Sequence record: OK322699.1
DNA length: 64,000 bases
Reading direction: 5' to 3' (one strand)
DNA from: Escherichia phage Sa157lw
Below are positions 24,454 through 32,004 of the stretch, piece by piece (position 1 is the first letter of the stretch; each line of letters opens with the position of its first letter). Below the pieces are notes generated by a model. It was given only the letters and a program-made list of their open reading frames with translations. It searched no databases and was not told where the DNA came from. The translations under genes were made by a program, and so were the position numbers.

Positions 24454-24972
24454 TCAAATACTAGTCATATAGAGTGGGACAACCTGCTCAGCGATAAACA
24501 CGACCTCGGTAATGGTAAAATCACCACCATAAGAGTACAGTTTCATTTGCGCCCCGTTGGTCGCCAGGTTCCCATCCTTGTCAACACTGAAGAACGTAAT
24601 GAAAGACAAAGTGTCCGGCGGCGGTACGCTAGCATCACGACTTCTTGATAACTGGTTCCCCACAGAACCCACAAAATCTAATATCATGGTTCTATTAGAA
24701 GTAGACCCAGACCATGATCCGACAATATTAACCTTCACAGGAAGAATAGAATCATAGGGAAACGCATGAAATTTGTGATCTGATAATTTAAAGAACGGAG
24801 CCAAACCAGTAGGAGAAGAAGGGTTTGGTGTCTTCCCATCCAACTCAGTTAACAAATCTATTCCAGTTGCCCCAGAAGTTAGCAGTTGTGACAATCCAGA
24901 AAATCTGACTTCTGTTTTAATGCGGTGGGTCTGAAGCATATTCCCCAAATAGGGAGATGTCAAAATAGCCAT
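24454..24972 (-). CDS. hypothetical protein (172 aa)
   Basis: Intact ORF. Confidence 0.45.
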   Translation of the reverse strand: MAILTSPYLGNMLQTHRIKTEVRFSGLSQLLTSGATGIDLLTELDGKTPNPSSPTGLAPFFKLSDHKFHAFPYDSILPVKVNIVGSWSGSTSNRTMILDFVGSVGNQLSRSRDASVPPPDTLSFITFFSVDKDGNLATNGAQMKLYSYGGDFTITEVVFIAEQVVPLYMTSI

Positions 24973-24981
24973 ATCTCCCCC

Positions 24982-25215
24982 TTAAGAAACGATAACCGTC
25001 GCATCAGAATTAATTGCCTTAACCCATCCCACCGTCGGCGGGGTTAAAACGACCATATTTCCTTGATATATGATATGCGCGTTGTTACCCGTTGGAGCGC
25101 TGGGGCTATCACACAGATACACAGAACCGTGAGTCACTTGAAGAGTTTTCAAAGATGTGCCGTCTGAGACTTGCGTCCATGTACTTGCGTTTGGTGTGAT
25201 CTTAGCAGTTGCCAT
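24982..25215 (-). CDS. hypothetical protein (77 aa)
   Basis: Intact ORF just downstream of the tRNA-cluster terminator. Confidence 0.4.
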   Translation of the reverse strand: MATAKITPNASTWTQVSDGTSLKTLQVTHGSVYLCDSPSAPTGNNAHIIYQGNMVVLTPPTVGWVKAINSDATVIVS

Positions 25216-25250
25216 AATAGACCTCCTTTACAAGTCAGATCTATTTATTA

Positions 25251-25285
25251 CAGACAAAAAGAAGCCCGATCGTCCTGATCGGGCT
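25251..25285 (-). terminator. intrinsic terminator at the 3' end of the tRNA cluster
   Basis: Perfect 9-bp stem agcccgatc/gatcgggct with 5-nt loop; minus strand continues tctttttgtc. Confidence 0.55.
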
Positions 25286-25508
25286 ATGTTAAACCATCGT
25301 GGGGATGGAAAGACTACTCACAGCAATTTCTGATAATGGGCGTTGGGAGAGTGCGTCGGGAATCGAACCCGAAATCGTCAGGACGCTGAAAGCTATTTGC
25401 ATTTCACTTGCATATCCTGCGACTTTCTTAACTTCCTTAACCCCAGATTGTTATGAAGTCAGCATGCACACCTTCTTCATCTTCAGGAAGTCACACTCAT
25501 TATTCTGA

Positions 25509-25594
25509 TTGCTTCAACTGGATTCGAACCAGTGACCTCAGGCACCTTGTTCTCTCGAAACTTTCCTGCGCTCTACCACTCGAGCTATGAAGCA
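25509..25594 (-). tRNA. tRNA-like element (canonical acceptor, D-arm and T-arm; anticodon arm does not fold canonically)
   Basis: Acceptor tgcttca/tgaagca, D-arm gctc-gagtggta-gagc and T-arm actgg-ttcgaat-ccagt are textbook, but the 36 nt between cannot be folded by eye. Confidence 0.4.
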
Positions 25595-25597
25595 ATT

Positions 25598-25686
25598 TGG
25601 CGGAAGGTGAAGGATTCGAACCTTCGGGGGCTAAAAGCCCCACTCGATTAGCAGTCGAGTCCCTTAAACCTCTCGGGCAACCTTCC
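25598..25686 (-). tRNA. tRNA-Ser (GCU), type II with long variable arm, CCA encoded
   Basis: Hand fold: acceptor ggaaggt/accttcc, 3-bp D-stem, anticodon arm ctcga-cuGCUaa-tcgag, variable hairpin gggc-tttt-agccc, T-arm gaagg-ttcgaat-ccttc. Confidence 0.8.
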
Positions 25687-25690
25687 AATT

Positions 25691-25774
25691 TGGAGCGGGA
25701 GAACAGGATTCGAACCTGTCCAGTGATCGTCGCCGATGATCAGTCGGCTACTGGCCAACCCCTATGGCTCCCGC
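25691..25774 (-). tRNA. tRNA-like element with GAU anticodon-like loop (possible Ile), non-canonical D region, CCA encoded
   Basis: Perfect acceptor gcgggag/ctcccgc, T-arm acagg-ttcgaat-cctgt, hairpin gccga-cuGAUca-tcggc; extra nucleotide before the 3' acceptor strand and no clean D-arm. Confidence 0.4.
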
Positions 25775-26249
25775 GAAATTTGGACGGGCTTCACACCCGA
25801 TTGAGCATTTGATCTGCCGTAGCCCAACTCCCCGCGCTTCACAGCGCCGATTGGTTAACTGGCGACCAGTGCCTTCTGGTTCGATCTCCTGGAACTTTAC
25901 AGGCTTCGCGCCCGACCATTTCTGGAAGTTGGGGCATCGTTTCCGATGTGGAGTCACCCCATTTTATACACAGCTGGCTGCAACGCTTACTGTGTTTGGT
26001 CTACCGCTACGTGCTGGGCCACGCTCGAGGACATCGGCCATCCTTCCTCAGCTAATCCACGCAGCGGCAGATTTGTATCAGAGTGTCCGGTGTAGCTTTC
26101 CGTGAGGTGCGCACTACTGTAGCCTCTACACTCTGAAATTGTTTGAAGTAGGTCTCACTCCCCTGGGTATCTGTATCCTGCAGCCTTACATTGGCAGCTA
26201 TCGCGCGATTCGCACTTCCGAAGGCGCTTCGAGATACTCTACTTCAATT

Positions 26250-26325
26250 TGGCGACGATGGCAGGACTTGAACCTGCGACATACGATTTAACAGACCGCC
26301 GTTCTACCGACTGAACTACATCGTC
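26250..26325 (-). tRNA. tRNA-Asn (GUU), CCA encoded
   Basis: Hand fold: acceptor gacgatg/catcgtc, D-arm gttc-agtcggta-gaac, anticodon arm gcggt-cuGUUaa-atcgt, T-arm gcagg-ttcaagt-cctgc. Confidence 0.85.
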
Positions 26326-26326
26326 A

Positions 26327-26527
26327 TTATCCGTGCTTGTTTGCTTCAATTGCCCTTAATTGGGCATCAGCGTCAGCTTTGGTGTCATGTGTCCCAAGAA
26401 CCTTCGTCTTGGTGTGGTCAAGGACAACCCACTTGTCGCCTCGCTTTTCAACAAACTCAACAATCTCTTTGTTGTCAGTAGAGAGGCCATCCCACTCAGC
26501 AAGAAACTCACCGAACGTTTTCATCAT
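26327..26527 (-). CDS. small hypothetical protein (67 aa) between tRNA genes
   Basis: ORF fits exactly between tRNA-Asn and tRNA-Met. Confidence 0.3.
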   Translation of the reverse strand: MMKTFGEFLAEWDGLSTDNKEIVEFVEKRGDKWVVLDHTKTKVLGTHDTKADADAQLRAIEANKHG

Positions 26528-26644
26528 ACTCACCAATCGTTTATTGAACAACTGGTTTATTTAGGTGCTCCCGAGGCGGTATTTTAATCCCGCGATCCCA
26601 TCTCGCCTGTCGTAGACCGGAGCATGCTGACAGTCCAACATATT

Positions 26645-26720
26645 TGGTGACCCTGGCTGGACTTGAACCAGCGACCAATCGATTATGAGTCGACTGCTCT
26701 AACCACTGAGCTACGGGGCC
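26645..26720 (-). tRNA. tRNA-Met (CAU; elongator-type or lysidine Ile2), CCA encoded
   Basis: Hand fold: acceptor ggccccg/cagggtc (one C-A mismatch), D-arm gctc-agtggtta-gagc, anticodon arm gtcga-cuCAUaa-tcgat, T-arm gctgg-ttcaagt-ccagc. Confidence 0.75.
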
Positions 26721-26828
26721 AAAATTGGCGGGGTCTGAGGCTTTTCACCTCACCTGCTGGATTGGCCTCCAGCTGTTCTCTCTGGGGACTCGCTGTCCGG
26801 ACAGCTATCCCTTAAACTATCGCCCCTT

Positions 26829-26943
26829 AATTCATATTGCTGTGGGTAATACCAAAGCGGAGGTTTGGAATCTCTCGCCCTATAGCGACCTTTAAACCGT
26901 TTGATCAGTCCGATCCAAAGGACTACCCACAGCAATATGAATT
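26829..26943. repeat. perfect 20-bp inverted repeat (26829-26848 / 26924-26943) around a 75-nt spacer
   Basis: aattcatattgctgtgggta is the exact reverse complement of tacccacagcaatatgaatt. Confidence 0.9.
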
Positions 26944-27150
26944 TGTTGTGTCCAATCAAGGACTGTCAACCTTTTATCCCGTTTGTGCATGATCAGTTCA
27001 TGCAGGCCTCTTTGTGCGCCTCACAGCAACGCGCTTCTGTAGGTCATTGACTTGCACCGTAGTCTCACCACAGGCGTTTATTTTTCCAGGGCTTTCCACT
27101 TACAAGTCTTAACCAGATCGGGATACGGGCTTGTAAGATCAGATTGGACA

Positions 27151-27228
27151 CAACTTTGATGGCTCTAGGACTAAAGATCCCGCGTCACCCATAGACTTGG
27201 TTTATAAAATCTAGAGCCATCAAAGTTG
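27151..27228. repeat. perfect 18-bp inverted repeat (27151-27168 / 27211-27228) around a 42-nt spacer
   Basis: caactttgatggctctag vs ctagagccatcaaagttg. Confidence 0.9.
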
Positions 27229-27608
27229 CAACCAATGTCGCAACTCGCACTTCAGCGTCTTCGTCTCGCTTCAGCACTTGTCCTCTACGCTCGGACCAAA
27301 CGAGGCTGGCCGACAGAAACATGACACCACTCATCACTAGAGCGAGGATGTGGTTGATAGCCACGATGTTACATCTCTGTCGCAGAGTGATCACACTTGT
27401 CAGGATGATCACTGTTTTGCGAACTTGAAAATACTGCGCCTGTCTCGGGTTTCCCCTTAGTTCGGCCTCTCATTGTTCGTCTAGTCAGGGAGCTACCCTT
27501 GATGACCAGCTTATTTTGAGATCTTCGCCAGCACCCACTAGTGTCTAGAATATGTAGGTGTCGAGGTCTGCAAGGCATTGCCCTATTTCATACAACGCTC
27601 TCTCAAGT

Positions 27609-27744
27609 ACGCAAATCGAAGTTCTCTGGGCTTAACAGGTTCGACCCAACATGTTGTATATCGCCTAACTTGCTCATGGGACGGACACATCTGTGTACAG
27701 ACCTTGAGGGTTAAAAGATATACCCAAAGAACTTCGATTTGCGT
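27609..27744. repeat. perfect 17-bp inverted repeat (27609-27625 / 27728-27744) around a 102-nt spacer
   Basis: acgcaaatcgaagttct vs agaacttcgatttgcgt. Confidence 0.85.
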
Positions 27745-27889
27745 TGTGGGGGCAAACCCCCACACGGCTACTTCTTTGACAGGGATTGCTAGCCCTGGGG
27801 ATTCCACTGTTTAAGGCTTTATCCCATAACGCCTGAGGCGCGTTTTAACTTATTGAGCTTGCATAACTGCAAACTGATGCGCTGTGAGA

Positions 27890-28022
27890 CACATCTTTGA
27901 GGGCACTCAGTGTACAACAGGCTCCGATATTTCATAGGGCATTACTGCCTCGGATTTAAGTTGCCTTTCTCCTGAAACTCCATGCAGTCTCGCGTCTGAC
28001 GCGGAATGCCCTCAAAGATGTG
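27890..28022. repeat. perfect 16-bp inverted repeat (27890-27905 / 28007-28022) around a 101-nt spacer
   Basis: cacatctttgagggca vs tgccctcaaagatgtg; right arm ends at the tgg of the adjacent tRNA-like 3' module. Confidence 0.85.
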
Positions 28023-28146
28023 GAGCCGTTTTAGGGAGTCGAACCCAAATGCTTGGCCAGCGCTGACCTTACATCCCATCTGACTTAGGCAACCCACCTC
28101 TGCTTACTCAGGAGCTTATCCCCTTTGGACAGTCAGATATAACGGC
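28021..28146 (-). ncRNA. tRNA-like 3' module (CCA, acceptor, T-arm) whose only matching 5' acceptor strand is ~120 nt away
   Basis: tgg-a-gccgttt-taggg-agtcgaa-cccaa at 28021-28048; complementary aacggc only at 28141-28146. Confidence 0.25.
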
Positions 28147-28148
28147 TT

Positions 28149-28217
28149 TGGGATTGGAGGAAGGACTCGAACCTTCTCATGTACGCTCCTGATTTCTCAG
28201 AAGTAGCCTGCTCCCAT
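28149..28217 (-). tRNA. short tRNA-like element (about 69 nt with CCA), anticodon arm atypical
   Basis: CCA-discriminator-acceptor attggag, T-arm gaagg-actcgaa-ccttc, 5' strand atgggag (one mismatch); central ctga-gaaa-tcag hairpin has a 4-nt loop. Confidence 0.3.
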
Positions 28218-28434
28218 CGACCTATTAAGTACACGCTCCGCTCATTGTTCGGCGGGAGCTTATTAATCACACCCTCCCGCCTATTGTTAGTGCGCCGAAT
28301 TTTGTTATGAGGAATCGGAAGACCTCACTGGTGTATGGCTATTAAGCTACTGCCAGGAACGTGTTATCATTAGCGATTATTTTTGTGGTCAGTTTCTAAA
28401 AACCCGCAAAGTCACGCACAACGAAAACGAAAAC

Positions 28435-28499
28435 CTGTTTGAGTCCTAAACCTACCTGTCTTGGTCTCACATCGCTATGAGTGGCCAGGACTCAAACAG
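28435..28499. repeat. perfect 13-bp inverted repeat (28435-28447 / 28487-28499) around a 39-nt spacer
   Basis: ctgtttgagtcct vs aggactcaaacag. Confidence 0.8.
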
Positions 28500-29289
28500 C
28501 TTGCCGTTCAGTGAGTTAACTATACTTTGTAACCCGTTATTGATAAAACCTTTTATTTTTGTTGACGAGGGTGTGGAATCGAACCACACTTCTGAGCGCT
28601 GCCCCGTGTCACCAATGCACCACCTCACCATCGATTTGCCGGAACTTACGCATCCGGCCTCGCCTGTTGGTGATCCTTCGAATCCGGGAAGATTAGTAGG
28701 AACTATGAATCAAGTTAATTCGACCAACAGGAATCCTCGTGTTGCCCTTTGACGCAACATTATGAACCCTCTATGAAGACTCATAATGTTGTCGGCGTGA
28801 TGGAGATTAGCGCCCCCGACCTCCCCTTATATGTTGGTGTCGACTTGCCAACGGGGTGCTCTCATTCTTCTGAGCTAATCACGCTACAACAGGGAGTTTC
28901 GTTCTCCGACGGTCAAGTGCGTCCACTGACACCAGCGAGGTGGATGTGACGCCTCTATTCACACAAGCCCCAGAGACTAGGGGTTCACTGTTTTCGGTTT
29001 CAAGCCTACTCACACTGTGCTGTTTCCCTCATGTTTGATACTTTACTGCAAGCCAGCCAATTTGAAAAATCCTCTCCCCTTTGAATTACACTGCCCACAG
29101 CAGTGCGGACGAACCTTCATTCAAAACCGGATGCGCCGAAATGGGCGACTGTGTACCGGACTGATCAGGTCGACCCAGGAGAGAGCAGGTAATCCCGATC
29201 AGGAGGATGAGGAGTAACATCATGTAAAACATAGTGTTCCCTCCCTTCCATGCAACTAACTTTACCGCATTTATTTATTGAATAAAGCG

Positions 29290-29859
29290 TTATTTTATCA
29301 ATTCTAACTTCACAACGCGGCGCAGAAGATAAACATATTCACCAGACGCTTCATGCGACATATAATGTGTAGAAGGGGTGGAATGGTTGTTCTGGGTTTC
29401 TTTTAACCCAACGCGTTCAGCCCAACCATTAATGGAGTTCCCGTAAAACCCGATAATCGCGCCGAAATAAATGCGCTGGCTTTCTGGTTCTAAAATATAG
29501 TTGACAGTGAAGCAGATGTCAGAACGAATAGATTCTAATTTTATACCAACCCGACCTTCAGAGAATTCGTTGCGAACATACAAATGACGAAAACGATCGC
29601 GCCGCGCTTGTGATGACTCTTCCAATTCTTGGCGAAGTGAGGATGTTGCATCGATATTAAATGAAAATGTCGGGTTTTGTAGATCGGTACGGGCTAACTC
29701 TAATGCTGATTCAACAACACGGCGGTAATTAATATTTTTGCCAGTCAGACGTTTCACTTCTTCTGTAATTGTTCCGAAAGGAATTTTTGTAGCACGTTCC
29801 CCTTCGTATTTTGCTAACAAAGGAATGATGTGTTTCATTATTGCTGTATTAATGTGCAT
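29290..29859 (-). CDS. hypothetical protein (189 aa)
   Basis: Intact minus-strand ORF at the edge of the non-coding region, divergent from the structural module. Confidence 0.45.
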   Translation of the reverse strand: MHINTAIMKHIIPLLAKYEGERATKIPFGTITEEVKRLTGKNINYRRVVESALELARTDLQNPTFSFNIDATSSLRQELEESSQARRDRFRHLYVRNEFSEGRVGIKLESIRSDICFTVNYILEPESQRIYFGAIIGFYGNSINGWAERVGLKETQNNHSTPSTHYMSHEASGEYVYLLRRVVKLELIK

Positions 29860-30222
29860 TTCCTGAGCCTCGTCAAATTAATTAAATGTCCCCACTATTA
29901 TATTGGGAATATGTTTATTGAATATAACCCCAAGAAAGGCCAATAAAATAATGACAGCGATTATTAATAGGTAAAAACTACTTTTCTACAACATCAAGAA
30001 ACTGTATCTTAACGCGGTGCCCTTCGAGTTGTGAGTGTTAACGAACAACGAGAAGCAGCCTCCATGGCTGCGGAATGGGACTGCCTGTCAAGGCGGTGTT
30101 ACGAGCGAGGGCGTCAGCCCCCTCGCGAGTATATTCGAATAAATTAACGCGCGAGAGCGTTTTGATTCCCTTTGGCTAAATATCTTCAACACCATATTCA
30201 AACTCAGGTGATGGAGATTATC

Positions 30223-32004
30223 ATGGCCACGCAAACAGTTCCTTCACTCGACGTCAGAGCCTTTGAGTACATTATCAAACAGCGAATGAAAGCTGATCCC
30301 ACCTTTAAAGATTATGACTTTGAAGGTTCTGGTCTTAGTGCTATTATTCGTTTGTTGGCATCTGATGCGAACGCCATAGCCTTTATGCAGAACATGCTTA
30401 ATGGTGAAGGCCATTTAAAAACAGCAAATCAACGTTCTAATGTTGGTTTGTCTGCTGCTTTTCTTTCTTATACCCCCGACAACTATCGGGCGGCATACAT
30501 GTATGCCAACATCAAAGTAACGCCGTATGACGCCAGTACAGCTCCTAATGAGATCATTATGGACCGCCGTGTGATGTTCGTTGGGGCGAAGGATGGGAGT
30601 TCCTACAACTTTACTGTTGAAAAACCCGTGTCCGCCACGTTGACAACAGACGGTTATTACATGTTCAACAACGTGAAACTGATTCAGGGTAACTGGTTGT
30701 ACAAGACATATGATGTTGAAGGAAGCGCGATTTCGACTTATACGATACCTTCGGAAAATGTTGATATCAATCATCTGGTCGTACAGGTACAGGAATCAGA
30801 GTCCTCTGATGTTTCAACGACATACCAGAGATACAACAGTCCGTTCGACCTGAATCAATATGCATATCTCTATTTTGTGGAATTAGGGATAGATGGCCTG
30901 TATGTGTTTGAGTTCGGAGATGGTTATCTGTCTCGCCGAGTAGAAGATGGCAACGTTATTTTCCTCCAGTATTTAGAAACTTCTGGTGCTGAAGGTAATG
31001 ACATCACTAGTTTATCTTCCGCATCTTCGATAGGCGGGTTTAACCAGGTTGATATAGAATTGGTTTCCGAACGCAGTGCGGGTGGGGGAGATCCGGAATC
31101 TATTGAAGATACGAAGCGTCTGGCACCTTTGGCTTATCAGGCTGATGGCGCTGCCGTTACGGAAACCGATTACGGTGTTTTAACTGAACGCTTGTTTTCT
31201 AACGTTGCCCGTGCTAAATCATATGGGGGTGATACGCTTTCCCCTCCGGATTCTGGTTACGTTTATATCGCTGTGATACCATCTGTTGGGGAGACTCTTT
31301 CAGACGCAGAGAAGGCTGATATCGTTGCCGCGTTGGACAAATACAACGTTGGGTCCATCACCCCCAAAGTGGTAGATTCTGAGATCACATATATCCAAGT
31401 CACCACGACTATATTTTGGGATCCGACTTCGACAGTTTATGTTGAAGAACAGATGAAAGTCGTAGTTGGCAACAGTATTGTCAAATGGGGCGAAAACAAT
31501 CTCGGTGGATTTGATCAGTTGTTCGACAAAGAGATATTGCAGGAAGCAATTACGAAAATGGAACGTTCCATTAACTCAAATATCACGTCTGTCGGTTATA
31601 AACGTCATTTCAAACCCGATTATGGTGTGTTGGATAGCTTTACTTTCAGTTATGGGAGAAGCATTAAACCTGGTTCTGTGAAAATAACAGGGTTTAAACC
31701 GCTTCCGGCCGAAGTTGATTTCACATATTATATGCGCGATGACAATGGCGATTTGAACATGTATAAAGTGAACAACAACGACACCACTAAAGAATTTTTG
31801 GTTCAAAAGACTGGTGTTGTGGATTACGCCAACGGCGTCGTAGATCTTCAGCAGATTACGGTTTCAAACTATAATACTGAAGGAGTAACGATCGTTGTGC
31901 TACCAGATGGCCTGAATCAGAATATACAGGCTTCACAAAACCAGGTATTCAAAATCGGTGATGTGGTTGTTACGCCAGAGGTGCGCTATGTCCAAAGATC
32001 TTAA
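30223..32004 (+). CDS. baseplate wedge protein, T4 gp6-like
   Basis: N-terminal DYDFEGSGLSAIIRLLASDAN matches T4 gp6 LDYDFEGSRLNVLCDLLAYN; start placed at ATG 30223 (GGAG RBS) inside ORF-track ORF 30172-32004. Confidence 0.75.
   Translation: MATQTVPSLDVRAFEYIIKQRMKADPTFKDYDFEGSGLSAIIRLLASDANAIAFMQNMLNGEGHLKTANQRSNVGLSAAFLSYTPDNYRAAYMYANIKVTPYDASTAPNEIIMDRRVMFVGAKDGSSYNFTVEKPVSATLTTDGYYMFNNVKLIQGNWLYKTYDVEGSAISTYTIPSENVDINHLVVQVQESESSDVSTTYQRYNSPFDLNQYAYLYFVELGIDGLYVFEFGDGYLSRRVEDGNVIFLQYLETSGAEGNDITSLSSASSIGGFNQVDIELVSERSAGGGDPESIEDTKRLAPLAYQADGAAVTETDYGVLTERLFSNVARAKSYGGDTLSPPDSGYVYIAVIPSVGETLSDAEKADIVAALDKYNVGSITPKVVDSEITYIQVTTTIFWDPTSTVYVEEQMKVVVGNSIVKWGENNLGGFDQLFDKEILQEAITKMERSINSNITSVGYKRHFKPDYGVLDSFTFSYGRSIKPGSVKITGFKPLPAEVDFTYYMRDDNGDLNMYKVNNNDTTKEFLVQKTGVVDYANGVVDLQQITVSNYNTEGVTIVVLPDGLNQNIQASQNQVFKIGDVVVTPEVRYVQRS

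Follow-up and report, generated by a model that had tools for sequence, protein, structure and literature searches.

The window analysed here is a stretch of 64,000 nucleotides from Escherichia phage Sa157lw (OK322699.1), which BLAST and taxonomy place among the CBA120/ViI-like members of Kuttervirus (Ackermannviridae, Cvivirinae). Within it lies a stretch poor in open reading frames (ORFs), bordered on the left by the tail-needle-knob gene (24454-24972, minus strand) and on the right by a conserved gene with no assigned function (29290-29859, minus), which adjoins a baseplate wedge gene (30172-32004, plus). No ORF of more than 113 amino acids was found between the tail-needle-knob gene and the conserved gene. 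By BLAST, the 4.3 kb from 25000 to 29300 matched Salmonella phage vB_Hercules_SET at 98%, together with about 90 other CBA120/ViI-like phages. Every recognisable RNA gene of the cluster is on the minus strand, including the tRNA genes called by ARAGORN (Ser, "Ile", Asn and Met), and the cluster is closed by a terminator-like site at 25285-25263 (minus). The subject of this work is a 126-nt gene on the strand of these tRNAs, at 28021-28146, for a cloverleaf-like, non-decoding tRNA-like RNA, referred to below as the element. Deposited annotations at the site are blank or show spurious hypothetical proteins. The 4.3-kb stretch, annotated as empty or with spurious small ORFs, is a chain of conserved, covarying structured RNAs, and the most conserved RNA of this chain is the 126-nt tRNA mimic.

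In tRNA numbering, G1 of the element is position 28146 and A76 of its CCA end is position 28021. In phages with unrelated upstream sequence (PhiSH19, May and IME250), the module matched by BLAST started exactly at 28146 and ended at 28005. A first-pass annotation, made from the letters alone, had proposed that a tRNA-like module of T arm, acceptor strand, discriminator and CCA at 28021-28048 abuts one arm of an inverted repeat, and that the only sequence complementary to its acceptor strand lies about 120 nt away. The plus-strand text of 28021-28048 is the reverse complement of UUUGGGUUCGACUCCCUAAAACGGCUCCA, and on the minus strand the module indeed reads UUUGGG-UUCGACU-CCCUA-AAACGGC-U-CCA. 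The displaced strand was identified as GCCGUU (28141-28146, minus), and going upstream on the RNA strand there is no other perfect partner within about 950 nt and no other wobble-tolerant one within about 650 nt. Since A28140 faces A28031, the acceptor stem is made of six Watson-Crick pairs (G1-C72 to U6-A67) and an A7.A66 mismatch. The acceptor pairing is supported by a compensatory change of U5-A68 to C5-G68 in three phages (the GOT/MK13/N6 lineage).

The RNA read from 28146 to 28021 folds as a four-way junction, as does the alifold consensus of its relatives. The acceptor stem is followed directly by U8-A9 and then, at the position of a D arm, by a long branched arm of 63 nt (28077-28139, minus) with an outer stem AUCUGACU/AGUCAGAU, three inner hairpins and an invariant AAAGGGGAUAAGCUCCUGAGUA. 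The position of the anticodon arm is taken by a second arm (28047-28076, minus) of 5+5 bp with an AA/AA internal loop, capped by a 4-nt GYGC loop, and no 7-nt anticodon loop is present in the element. The T arm, GGG/UUCGACU/CCC (28034-28046, minus), was invariant in 12 phages; its stem has five layers, a U-A, a U.U and three G-C. The acceptor 3' strand AAACGGC (28031-28025), the discriminator U (28024) and an encoded CCA (28023-28021) complete the molecule. The discriminator was U in 11 of the 12 aligned phages, and A in CECAV050 and in the metagenome locus L031. The element thus has the acceptor stem and the UUCRANY-type T loop of a canonical tRNA, and its 7/5 acceptor/T stack is what tRNA-processing enzymes measure. 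It is a conserved tRNA mimic. A coding function was rejected, as the overlapping 51-aa ORF (27942-28097, minus) is absent or altered in relatives.

For the analysis of covariation, the element was aligned from 12 phages of Kuttervirus, Taipeivirus and Agtrevirus, representing nine distinct sequences. Standard pairs occupied 99.1% of the pair cells in these nine sequences, and eight pairs were changed on both sides, compared with 0-2 in controls in which the 3' partners had been slid by 1-3 columns; none of 500 shuffles reached the covariation observed. The double-sided changes were located in the acceptor stem, the stem of the long arm, a distal hairpin and the second arm. In the long branched arm six pairs of helices 2 and 5 were changed on both sides, and the second arm varied from A-U to G-C at pair 74-99, between U.G and U-A, and between C-G and U.G. 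Of the 351 pair cells in the alignment, 54 were tallied as G.U; read from the plus strand, each of them would turn into an A.C mismatch, so the RNA strand is the minus strand. A covariance model built from the 12-phage alignment (R1) had one match in the window, at 155 bits. By BLAST, the element was present in 201 phage records of Kuttervirus, Taipeivirus and Agtrevirus, 194 of them at an identity of at least 95%, within flanks that are mosaic, and single-nucleotide insertions and deletions were confined to its loops. Nearly all matches in pattern scans of IMG/VR and metagenomes came from the same phage lineage. Two further loci (L029 and L030) matched a 19-mer and were discarded because they did not match the covariance model. 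In SE131 (Grimontviridae), the second tRNA-like RNA after a tag module of the kind described below was matched by R1 with 18.6 bits (E about 5e-4), which hints that the family of the element extends beyond Ackermannviridae.

Upstream of the element, in a region to which the first-pass annotation did not extend, are two further modules on the minus strand. The more distant one (28249-28513) is a tmRNA-like (transfer-messenger RNA) tag module, preceded by a sigma-70-like promoter at 28519-28546 (TTATCA, a 16-nt spacer and TATAGT; TTGTCA in most relatives). Sigma-70-like promoters also stand ahead of the module in the other families, with TTGACA in phages MK54, DS8 and tootiki. The module comprises a hairpin at 28499-28435, a resume codon GCU at 28374-28372, a reading frame for the tag ANDNTFLAVA ending in UAA UAG (28374-28339), a pseudoknot-like hairpin and a terminal hairpin at 28281-28251 with the conserved loop GGUGUGAUUAAUAAG. 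On the minus strand the tag stands in the context AAAAAUAAUC followed by GCU AAU GAU AAC ACG UUC CUG GCA GUA GCU UAA UAG. The tag of E. coli tmRNA is ANDENYALAA, which the predicted peptide resembles. A 9-mer, AUAAGCUCC, is common to the element and the terminal hairpin of the tag module, and an 8-mer, CGGCGCAC, is common to the module and the 3' end of T4 rnaD.

Three third-position differences (GCU/GCA, AAU/AAC and AAC/AAU) leave the peptide unchanged in other phages of Kuttervirus and Taipeivirus, and in other lineages the tag reads ANDDVVLMAA or ANDSEVLMAA. The tag with the pseudoknot-like hairpin behind it was seen in 647 phage records in total, which represent at least six groups of phages. 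The tag is ANDNVFLAVA in Felixounavirus, ANEEMYLAVA and ANDDVVLMAA in siphophages of Klebsiella and Shigella, ANDNAFRVAA in SE131 and ANEDTYLAVA in SSU5; the N4-like phage SP154 also carries the module. It was further present in 144 of 5,426 E. coli genomes, and in the one that was inspected (E. coli WP4-S18-ESBL-08) it lies in a lambdoid prophage between the genes for the Q antiterminator and the holin. In that prophage (locus L043, 2170-3200) the module, with the tag ANEEMYLAVA and its stop codon, is downstream of a terminator-like hairpin and is flanked by stem-framed modules, one of which encloses a T-arm-like hairpin, GGCGG-UUCGACU-CCGC; PGAP annotates nothing there. The tag module was missed everywhere by ARAGORN at default settings and by Rfam at gathering thresholds, and the permuted-tmRNA models of Rfam gave weak matches of 20-30 bits against a gathering score of 47 (tmRNA_permuted, 20.6 bits in the window). 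The G3.U70/A73 alanine identity and a P1/P2-type joining to the tag template are lacking in all the tRNA-like modules nearby, and the tag module is therefore regarded as tmRNA-derived and not as a canonical tmRNA. The only phages listed with ssrA in an exhaustive survey of 2014 were mycobacteriophages and Bacillus phage G (PMC4131195). Nothing relevant was found in the literature on tRNA-like RNAs, non-coding RNAs or tmRNA of Ackermannviridae.

The nearer module, called TL-A (28149-28248, minus), is directly upstream of the element and has its own T arm, acceptor strand and CCA. Its T arm, GAAGG/UUCGAGU/CCUUC (28176-28160), is followed by CUCCAAU, a C, the CCA at 28151-28149 and an AA spacer, which are the only two nucleotides between this CCA and G28146. 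The T stem and one internal stem of TL-A covary between the window and RCIP0012, and TL-A is absent from many relatives. Candidates for the 5' partner of its acceptor strand are GAUGGGAG at 28219 and a 4-bp pairing with GGAG, next to a reading as a minihelix.

This neighbourhood raises the question whether the element is the tRNA-like partner in a tmRNA-like system, in which the tag RNA (28513 to 28249) and one or two tRNA-like domains closed in themselves (TL-A and the element) would act together as consecutive modules, either tagging nascent host proteins with ANDNTFLAVA or hijacking or inhibiting trans-translation of the host. Such a role overlaps with the reading of the element as a tRNA mimic, and among the alternatives it holds up best, although we regard it as tentative. 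A tag frame with a tmRNA-type resume context stands 100-230 nt upstream of the element; the tag is conserved at the level of the peptide, with changes at third positions, and varies between families as tags do. Among 26 tag-bearing Ackermannviridae sequences, the window included, 24 have the T arm of the element 231-769 nt downstream of the resume codon, and where TL-A is absent the element comes directly after the tag module (231-232 nt). In SE131 the tag module is likewise followed by two T-arm modules, the second being the one matched by R1. On the other hand, the element has C3-G70 instead of G3.U70, and U as its discriminator. To our knowledge, the G3.U70/A73 alanine identity set is present in every known tmRNA. 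The element also closes on itself, with no P1/P2 pairing to the tag RNA; cleavage by RNase P would separate it from the tag module; and AG3, DS8, SP154 and the Menlow lineage retain the tag module without any downstream T arm. A one-piece tmRNA from 28616 to 28149, called by ARAGORN under relaxed settings (-ps80), was rejected, because its 5' strand AUUGGUG is AUAGGUU in RCIP0012 while the 3' strand is unchanged, and because the call relies on a module subject to insertion and deletion that is absent from May, Menlow and N6.

Downstream, the element runs into a hairpin that starts inside its CCA end. The first-pass annotation had noted a 16-bp inverted repeat with its right arm at 28007-28022, and this proved exact: CACATCTTTGAGGGCA at 27890-27905 has its perfect reverse complement at 28007-28022, and the arms extend to 24 nt (27890-27913 and 27999-28022) with 88% complementarity. 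As minus-strand RNA, the hairpin had a folding energy of -58.5 kcal/mol, compared with -36.6 +/- 3.6 for shuffled sequences (z = -6.1). There were four perfect inverted repeats of at least 16 bp with loops of at most 200 nt in the 64-kb window, all between 24.9 and 29.4 kb, and first-order Markov simulations gave 0.0 of them. The hairpin (27890-28022, minus) consists of a frame and an interior, here termed cargo. The 5' arm of the frame, CACAUCUUUGAGGGCAUUC (28004-28022), begins with the C-A of the CCA end and forms with the 3' arm, GAGUGCCCUCAAAGAUGUG (27890-27908), a stem of 19 contiguous pairs, one of them U.G. The stem has about two turns of near-perfect double-stranded RNA, as do stems of the RNase III type.

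The interior of the window, cargo A (27909-28003, minus), is a 95-nt sequence of several hairpins that was found in 117 phage records and is carried by the window, GOT, MK13, N6, Vi01, K751 and Menlow; it contains an internal compensatory change of GGCAGUAAUGCC to GGCGGUAACGCC. Unrelated sequence takes its place in other phages: cargo B in PhiSH19, with a T-arm-like hairpin; cargo C in May and RCIP0012; cargo D in IME250, with two T-arm-like hairpins; and cargo E in AG3. In fGhEcl02 and CECAV050 the hairpin is "empty", with 40 nt and an unchanged outer stem. The frame was then aligned by excising the arms by hand and joining them through an artificial loop. Over eight variants with six unrelated interiors, 94.7% of the frame was paired, and 8 of its 19 pairs were changed on both sides, against at most two in slid controls. 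In K751 and Menlow, where 2 nt after the CCA are deleted, the 3' arm reads GAUGGA in place of GAUGUG, which keeps the UCCA end paired. Since the stem is kept while the interiors are swapped, and since pairing was restored after the deletion, what selection maintains is a helix in phase with the 3' end of the tRNA-like RNA, not the interior. This cassette behaviour adds to what the first-pass annotation had described, as do the two upstream modules. The position of the hairpin is constant in every relative, right after the CCA or after the tag module.

The framed hairpin is one of a series of successive self-closing modules on the minus strand (28499-28435, 28022-27890, 27744-27609, 27236-27143, 27154-26945 and 26943-26829), with stems of 13-23 bp that enclose 40-185 nt and covary between genera. 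Block boundaries between phages coincide with module ends, and at least one of the modules, 26943-26829, is either there or missing as an exact unit. Such exchange of interiors as cassettes could also be explained if the inverted repeat were an element of the DNA, such as the terminal repeats of a miniature transposon, a hotspot of recombination or homing, or a cruciform, with the RNA fold being incidental. A homing endonuclease gene is inserted in the cluster region in CBA120 and its relatives, the arms of 16-24 nt have the form of the terminal repeats of a miniature inverted-repeat transposable element (MITE), and the A.C mismatch of some frames would pair on the other strand. We nevertheless consider a DNA-level element unlikely. 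The arm occurs in the 64-kb window as one pair only, apart from a weak relative (13 of 16 positions) at 27149 that is an arm of module 27236-27143, and no target-site duplication was evident. The element with its hairpin (271 nt) had no match in the 5,426 E. coli genomes, and a MITE or a host origin of the hairpin was rejected on these grounds. Even the empty variants keep the outer stem, in a hairpin of 40 nt. A transposon end would need neither the phasing of the stem to the CCA end nor the restoration of that pairing after a deletion, and the G.U pairs favour an RNA of the minus strand.

The distance between the acceptor strands was taken in the first-pass annotation to imply a tRNA-like gene with a large insertion, or a composite processed RNA. 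Part of this stands: the locus holds a minus-strand tRNA-like gene with its strands about 120 nt apart, within a transcript that needs processing, given the 2-nt spacer after the preceding CCA and the hairpin starting inside the element's own CCA. The insertion does not, as the additional sequence consists of conserved, covarying arms. No tRNA or tmRNA was called at the element by ARAGORN at default settings or by Rfam at gathering score, and an Rfam scan of the element up to E = 10 gave no tRNA, intron or other family, the only match to the tmRNA models being one of 13 nt to the T loop. The intron options of ARAGORN gave no tRNA at the element with default or near-default thresholds, so a standard tRNA with other boundaries, which the first-pass annotation had named as one outcome that would overturn it, was not found. 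At the 80% threshold the same options gave a 77-nt "tRNA-Leu(cag)" at 28097-28021, which was dismissed as implausible. Excision of the long arm leaves no D arm and no anticodon arm, and the element has neither the D arm nor the anticodon stem with a 7-nt loop of a canonical tRNA. Because there is no anticodon loop anywhere, the element is neither an interrupted nor a decoding tRNA.

A decayed tRNA gene with insertions, next to which the inverted repeat would be incidental debris, might be expected in a region that is highly mosaic and holds other odd tRNA-like genes (one with a 22-nt insert in the anticodon loop, and an 84-nt "tRNA-Ile"). It is very improbable, as the element is kept at an identity of at least 95% in 194 genomes of three genera while its neighbours are swapped, compensatory changes lie inside the supposed insertions, and insertions and deletions affect loops only. 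The position of the element and the hairpin just downstream of a tmRNA-like tag gene likewise argues against a broken tRNA and for a real structured RNA. Group I introns are found in some tRNA genes of bacteria and phages, and acceptor strands 120 nt apart would suit a gene that is spliced, by a group I or another intron, into a decoding tRNA, yet this is the least credible explanation of all, since no group I intron core (RF00028) was matched in the element up to E = 10, 126 nt is too short for a tRNA with a group I intron, and the removal of either arm leaves no D arm or 7-nt anticodon loop.

The closest known analogue of the element is the species 1 RNA of phage T4, encoded by rnaC. The rnaC segment of the T4 tRNA region was folded and aligned with its diverged counterparts in Citrobacter phage Moon and Yersinia phage fHe-Yen9-01. 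In the consensus, which is backed by 14 compensated pairs, a closing stem leads into a long arm, then a second arm whose loop has 6 nt, and finally a T arm. In rnaC and in the element these parts come in the same order, with about 60 nt in the long arm and no anticodon loop in the second, and the two RNAs are of similar size (139 nt for rnaC, 126 nt for the element). Both lie in a phage tRNA cluster, on the strand of the tRNAs and a few nucleotides from the preceding RNA, and each is preceded by another structured non-tRNA RNA, which in T4 is the species 2 RNA (rnaD). The T arm is GGUUCGAAUCC in rnaC and GGGUUCGACUCCC in the element. In spite of this likeness, no homology in sequence was detected: rnaC was not matched by R1, whose best match in the T4 tRNA region was tRNA-Thr at 17 bits, and the BLAST families are disjoint, with rnaC in 751 records, mostly T4-type phages that infect E. 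coli and Shigella (two of them, which were examined, belong to Straboviridae), and the element in Ackermannviridae. The closing stem of rnaC has two U.U mismatches and no CCA is encoded, unlike in the element; moreover, rnaC has no stem-framed cassette downstream, and rnaD has no tag reading frame. By analogy of layout, the element looks like a species-1-type RNA, but it is not assigned to the rnaC family. In T4, RNase P frees species 1 RNA from a dimeric precursor, and T and pseudouridine are present in the T loop of this RNA. As a separate observation, a loop motif (C)YGAGUA(A)G occurs in the element at 28105-28095 (CCUGAGUAAGC), in rnaD (CCUGAGUAAGG) and twice in rnaC (CCGAGUAGCG).

The tRNA-like domain (TLD) of tmRNA shares with the element an acceptor stem, a T arm and a CCA end without an anticodon, and both are found beside a tmRNA-type tag template with a resume-codon context (here the tag at 28374-28339 and the element from 28146). 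In contrast to the TLD, the element has an invariant C3-G70 and no G3.U70, it lacks A73, it carries a large branched arm and a second arm where the TLD has a D-loop analogue and helix P2, and it is closed on itself. With a canonical tRNA it has in common the 7/5 geometry, the T loop UUCGACU, U8-A9, a discriminator with an encoded CCA and the location in a tRNA cluster, and it differs by its length of 126 nt and by the absence of a D arm and an anticodon stem-loop. The frame, for its part, is similar to the stems of rRNA operons and to phage RNase III sites (T7 early RNA, lambda), in which a long near-perfect helix surrounds a structured RNA within a polycistronic non-coding transcript. Unlike rRNA processing stems, it encloses no more than 10-100 nt, a cargo that lacks conservation from phage to phage, and it starts inside the CCA; its cleavage is a prediction. 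Since at least one defining feature fails in each, the element fits none of tRNA, tmRNA TLD, intron-bearing tRNA and MITE.

Taken together, we consider it very probable that the element is a real structured RNA gene, and it is likely, though with less assurance, that it is a genuine, separately folding RNA gene for a tRNA mimic unable to decode. That the RNA is matured at the predicted ends is a somewhat weaker expectation, towards which we still lean. The element would be transcribed with the phage tRNA and non-coding RNA cluster from the promoter at 28546-28519, and possibly from others upstream, to the terminator-like site at 25285-25263. RNase P would cut 5' of G28146, which would at once free the CCA-AA end of TL-A. 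The 3' end would have to be formed by an endonucleolytic cut, since a 19-bp helix starting inside the CCA would block 3' exonucleases, and the near-perfect nature of this helix makes RNase III the most plausible enzyme to cut the frame and release both the 3' end and the cargo. The frame stem is thus best taken for a double-strand-specific (RNase III-type) processing stem or a stabilising stem around an exchangeable cargo, much like the processing stems around 16S and 23S rRNA. A stable tRNA-like RNA of 126 nt would result, a functional analogue of T4 species 1 RNA.

As to the role of such an RNA, most plausibly it would bind or titrate a factor that recognises tRNA, as a decoy or a partner. 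RNAs consisting only of a TLD (mycobacteriophage DS6A; Mao et al. 2009) are described, in the account given in PMC4131195, as inhibiting tmRNA, perhaps through titration of SmpB. With the tag template upstream, this makes SmpB and trans-translation the leading candidate target. A functional tie between the element and the tag RNA is nonetheless doubtful at present. Equally speculative is the wider proposal that the element, TL-A and the framed hairpins are parts of an unrecognised, widespread phage system around a tmRNA-derived tag template, in which the message-like and tRNA-like parts are separate self-folding modules that redirect or shut down host ribosome rescue. If so, a phage could tag host proteins with its own degron, or titrate SmpB with tRNA-like decoys that cannot be charged, and if the tRNA mimic and the tag RNA cooperate, virulent phages would be manipulating trans-translation in a new way.

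Several points weigh against the interpretation of the element as a separately folding, processed tRNA mimic. Its processing by RNase P and RNase III is predicted from shape, and the 126 nt by themselves do not stand out in folding energy (z = -1.35). Besides the U-A and U.U layers there are only three G-C pairs in the T stem, and the acceptor stem includes an A.A mismatch. The covariation was drawn from essentially two lineages, and so the number of independent events is small. The element is also dispensable, being absent from Agtrevirus AG3 and reduced to its last 13 nt in the Menlow lineage, and the A.C mismatch conserved in the frames of Taipeivirus and AG3 corresponds to G.U on the opposite strand. 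The functions of the T4 species 1 and 2 RNAs are themselves unknown (PMC3014915).

The species 1 and 2 RNAs of T4 have been a puzzle for fifty years. The element is an independent, comparably built counterpart to them in another phage family, which speaks for non-decoding tRNA mimics in phage tRNA clusters being a class under selection rather than an oddity of T4. CBA120, ViI and their relatives form a well-studied family of therapeutic phages, yet this chain of RNAs is unannotated in them, and the tag template, which standard tools miss, was reached by following the element.

Other tRNA-like RNAs, several of them with CCA-like ends, were noticed along the same strand of the cluster. Just downstream of the tRNA genes, an RNA of about 130 nt at 25475-25345 has a four-way layout like that of the element, with a closing stem GGUGUGC/GCACUCU, two arms, a T arm CGGG-UUCGAUU-CCCG and an end in C-CCA (folding z = -2.6). 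At 28884-28794, a 91-nt tRNA-like RNA has a 25-nt insert at the position of the anticodon loop and a non-standard T loop, and its counterpart in AG3 matched tRNA with 24 bits. A third, of 67 nt (28629-28563, GGUGAGG...CCUCGUC-A), lies inside the module that is absent from May, Menlow and N6. The tRNA gene at 25509-25594 (minus) scored 48.7 bits in Rfam and has no encoded CCA; a stretch of 22 nt replaces the nine central anticodon-arm positions of the model, and the gene was missed by ARAGORN and is labelled tRNA-OTHER or Undet in relatives. The 84-nt "tRNA-Ile(GAU)" called by ARAGORN at 25691-25774 (minus) has an apparent long extra arm, scored only 23 bits in Rfam, against the tRNA-Sec model, and is annotated on the opposite strand in one deposited record. 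Between tRNA-Met and tRNA-Asn is a conserved 74-aa ORF (26327-26551, minus) of phrog_3684 (unknown function), whose record in AG3 notes a likeness to p176 of Aeromonas phage Aeh1. In the same array of K751 (L008, 3445-3659) and IME250 (L006, 3287-3500), a module of the Salmonella sRNA family STnc100 (RF02076) was found with 48.8 bits against a gathering score of 47; it is partial in L010 (3477-3586) and absent from the window.

In the Felixounavirus tootiki, the tag module is followed by an RNA, CGGGGCG...CGCCUCG-A-CCA, whose G3.U70 first suggested an alanine-type TLD homologous to the 126-nt element. This was ruled out: the RNA is not detected by R1, it scored 33 bits as tRNA in Rfam, its G3.U70 is not conserved (G3-C70 in phi92), and it belongs to a widespread family of D-armless tRNAs with the conserved anticodon loop CUUCUAA. 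This family (tootiki, L036, 865-949; L040, L041 and L042) has UCU as its anticodon and a variable region with CGAGUAA; the loop motif GAGUA(A)G mentioned above occurs in it as well (CCGAGUAAGU). It was not called by ARAGORN and is labelled tRNA-OTHER in some records. The copies of phi92 and SE_PL have promoter-like sequences of their own upstream and no tag module, and the range of the family takes in Felixounavirus, phi92-like phages, jumbo phages (SE_PL) and Streptomyces phage Stanimal.

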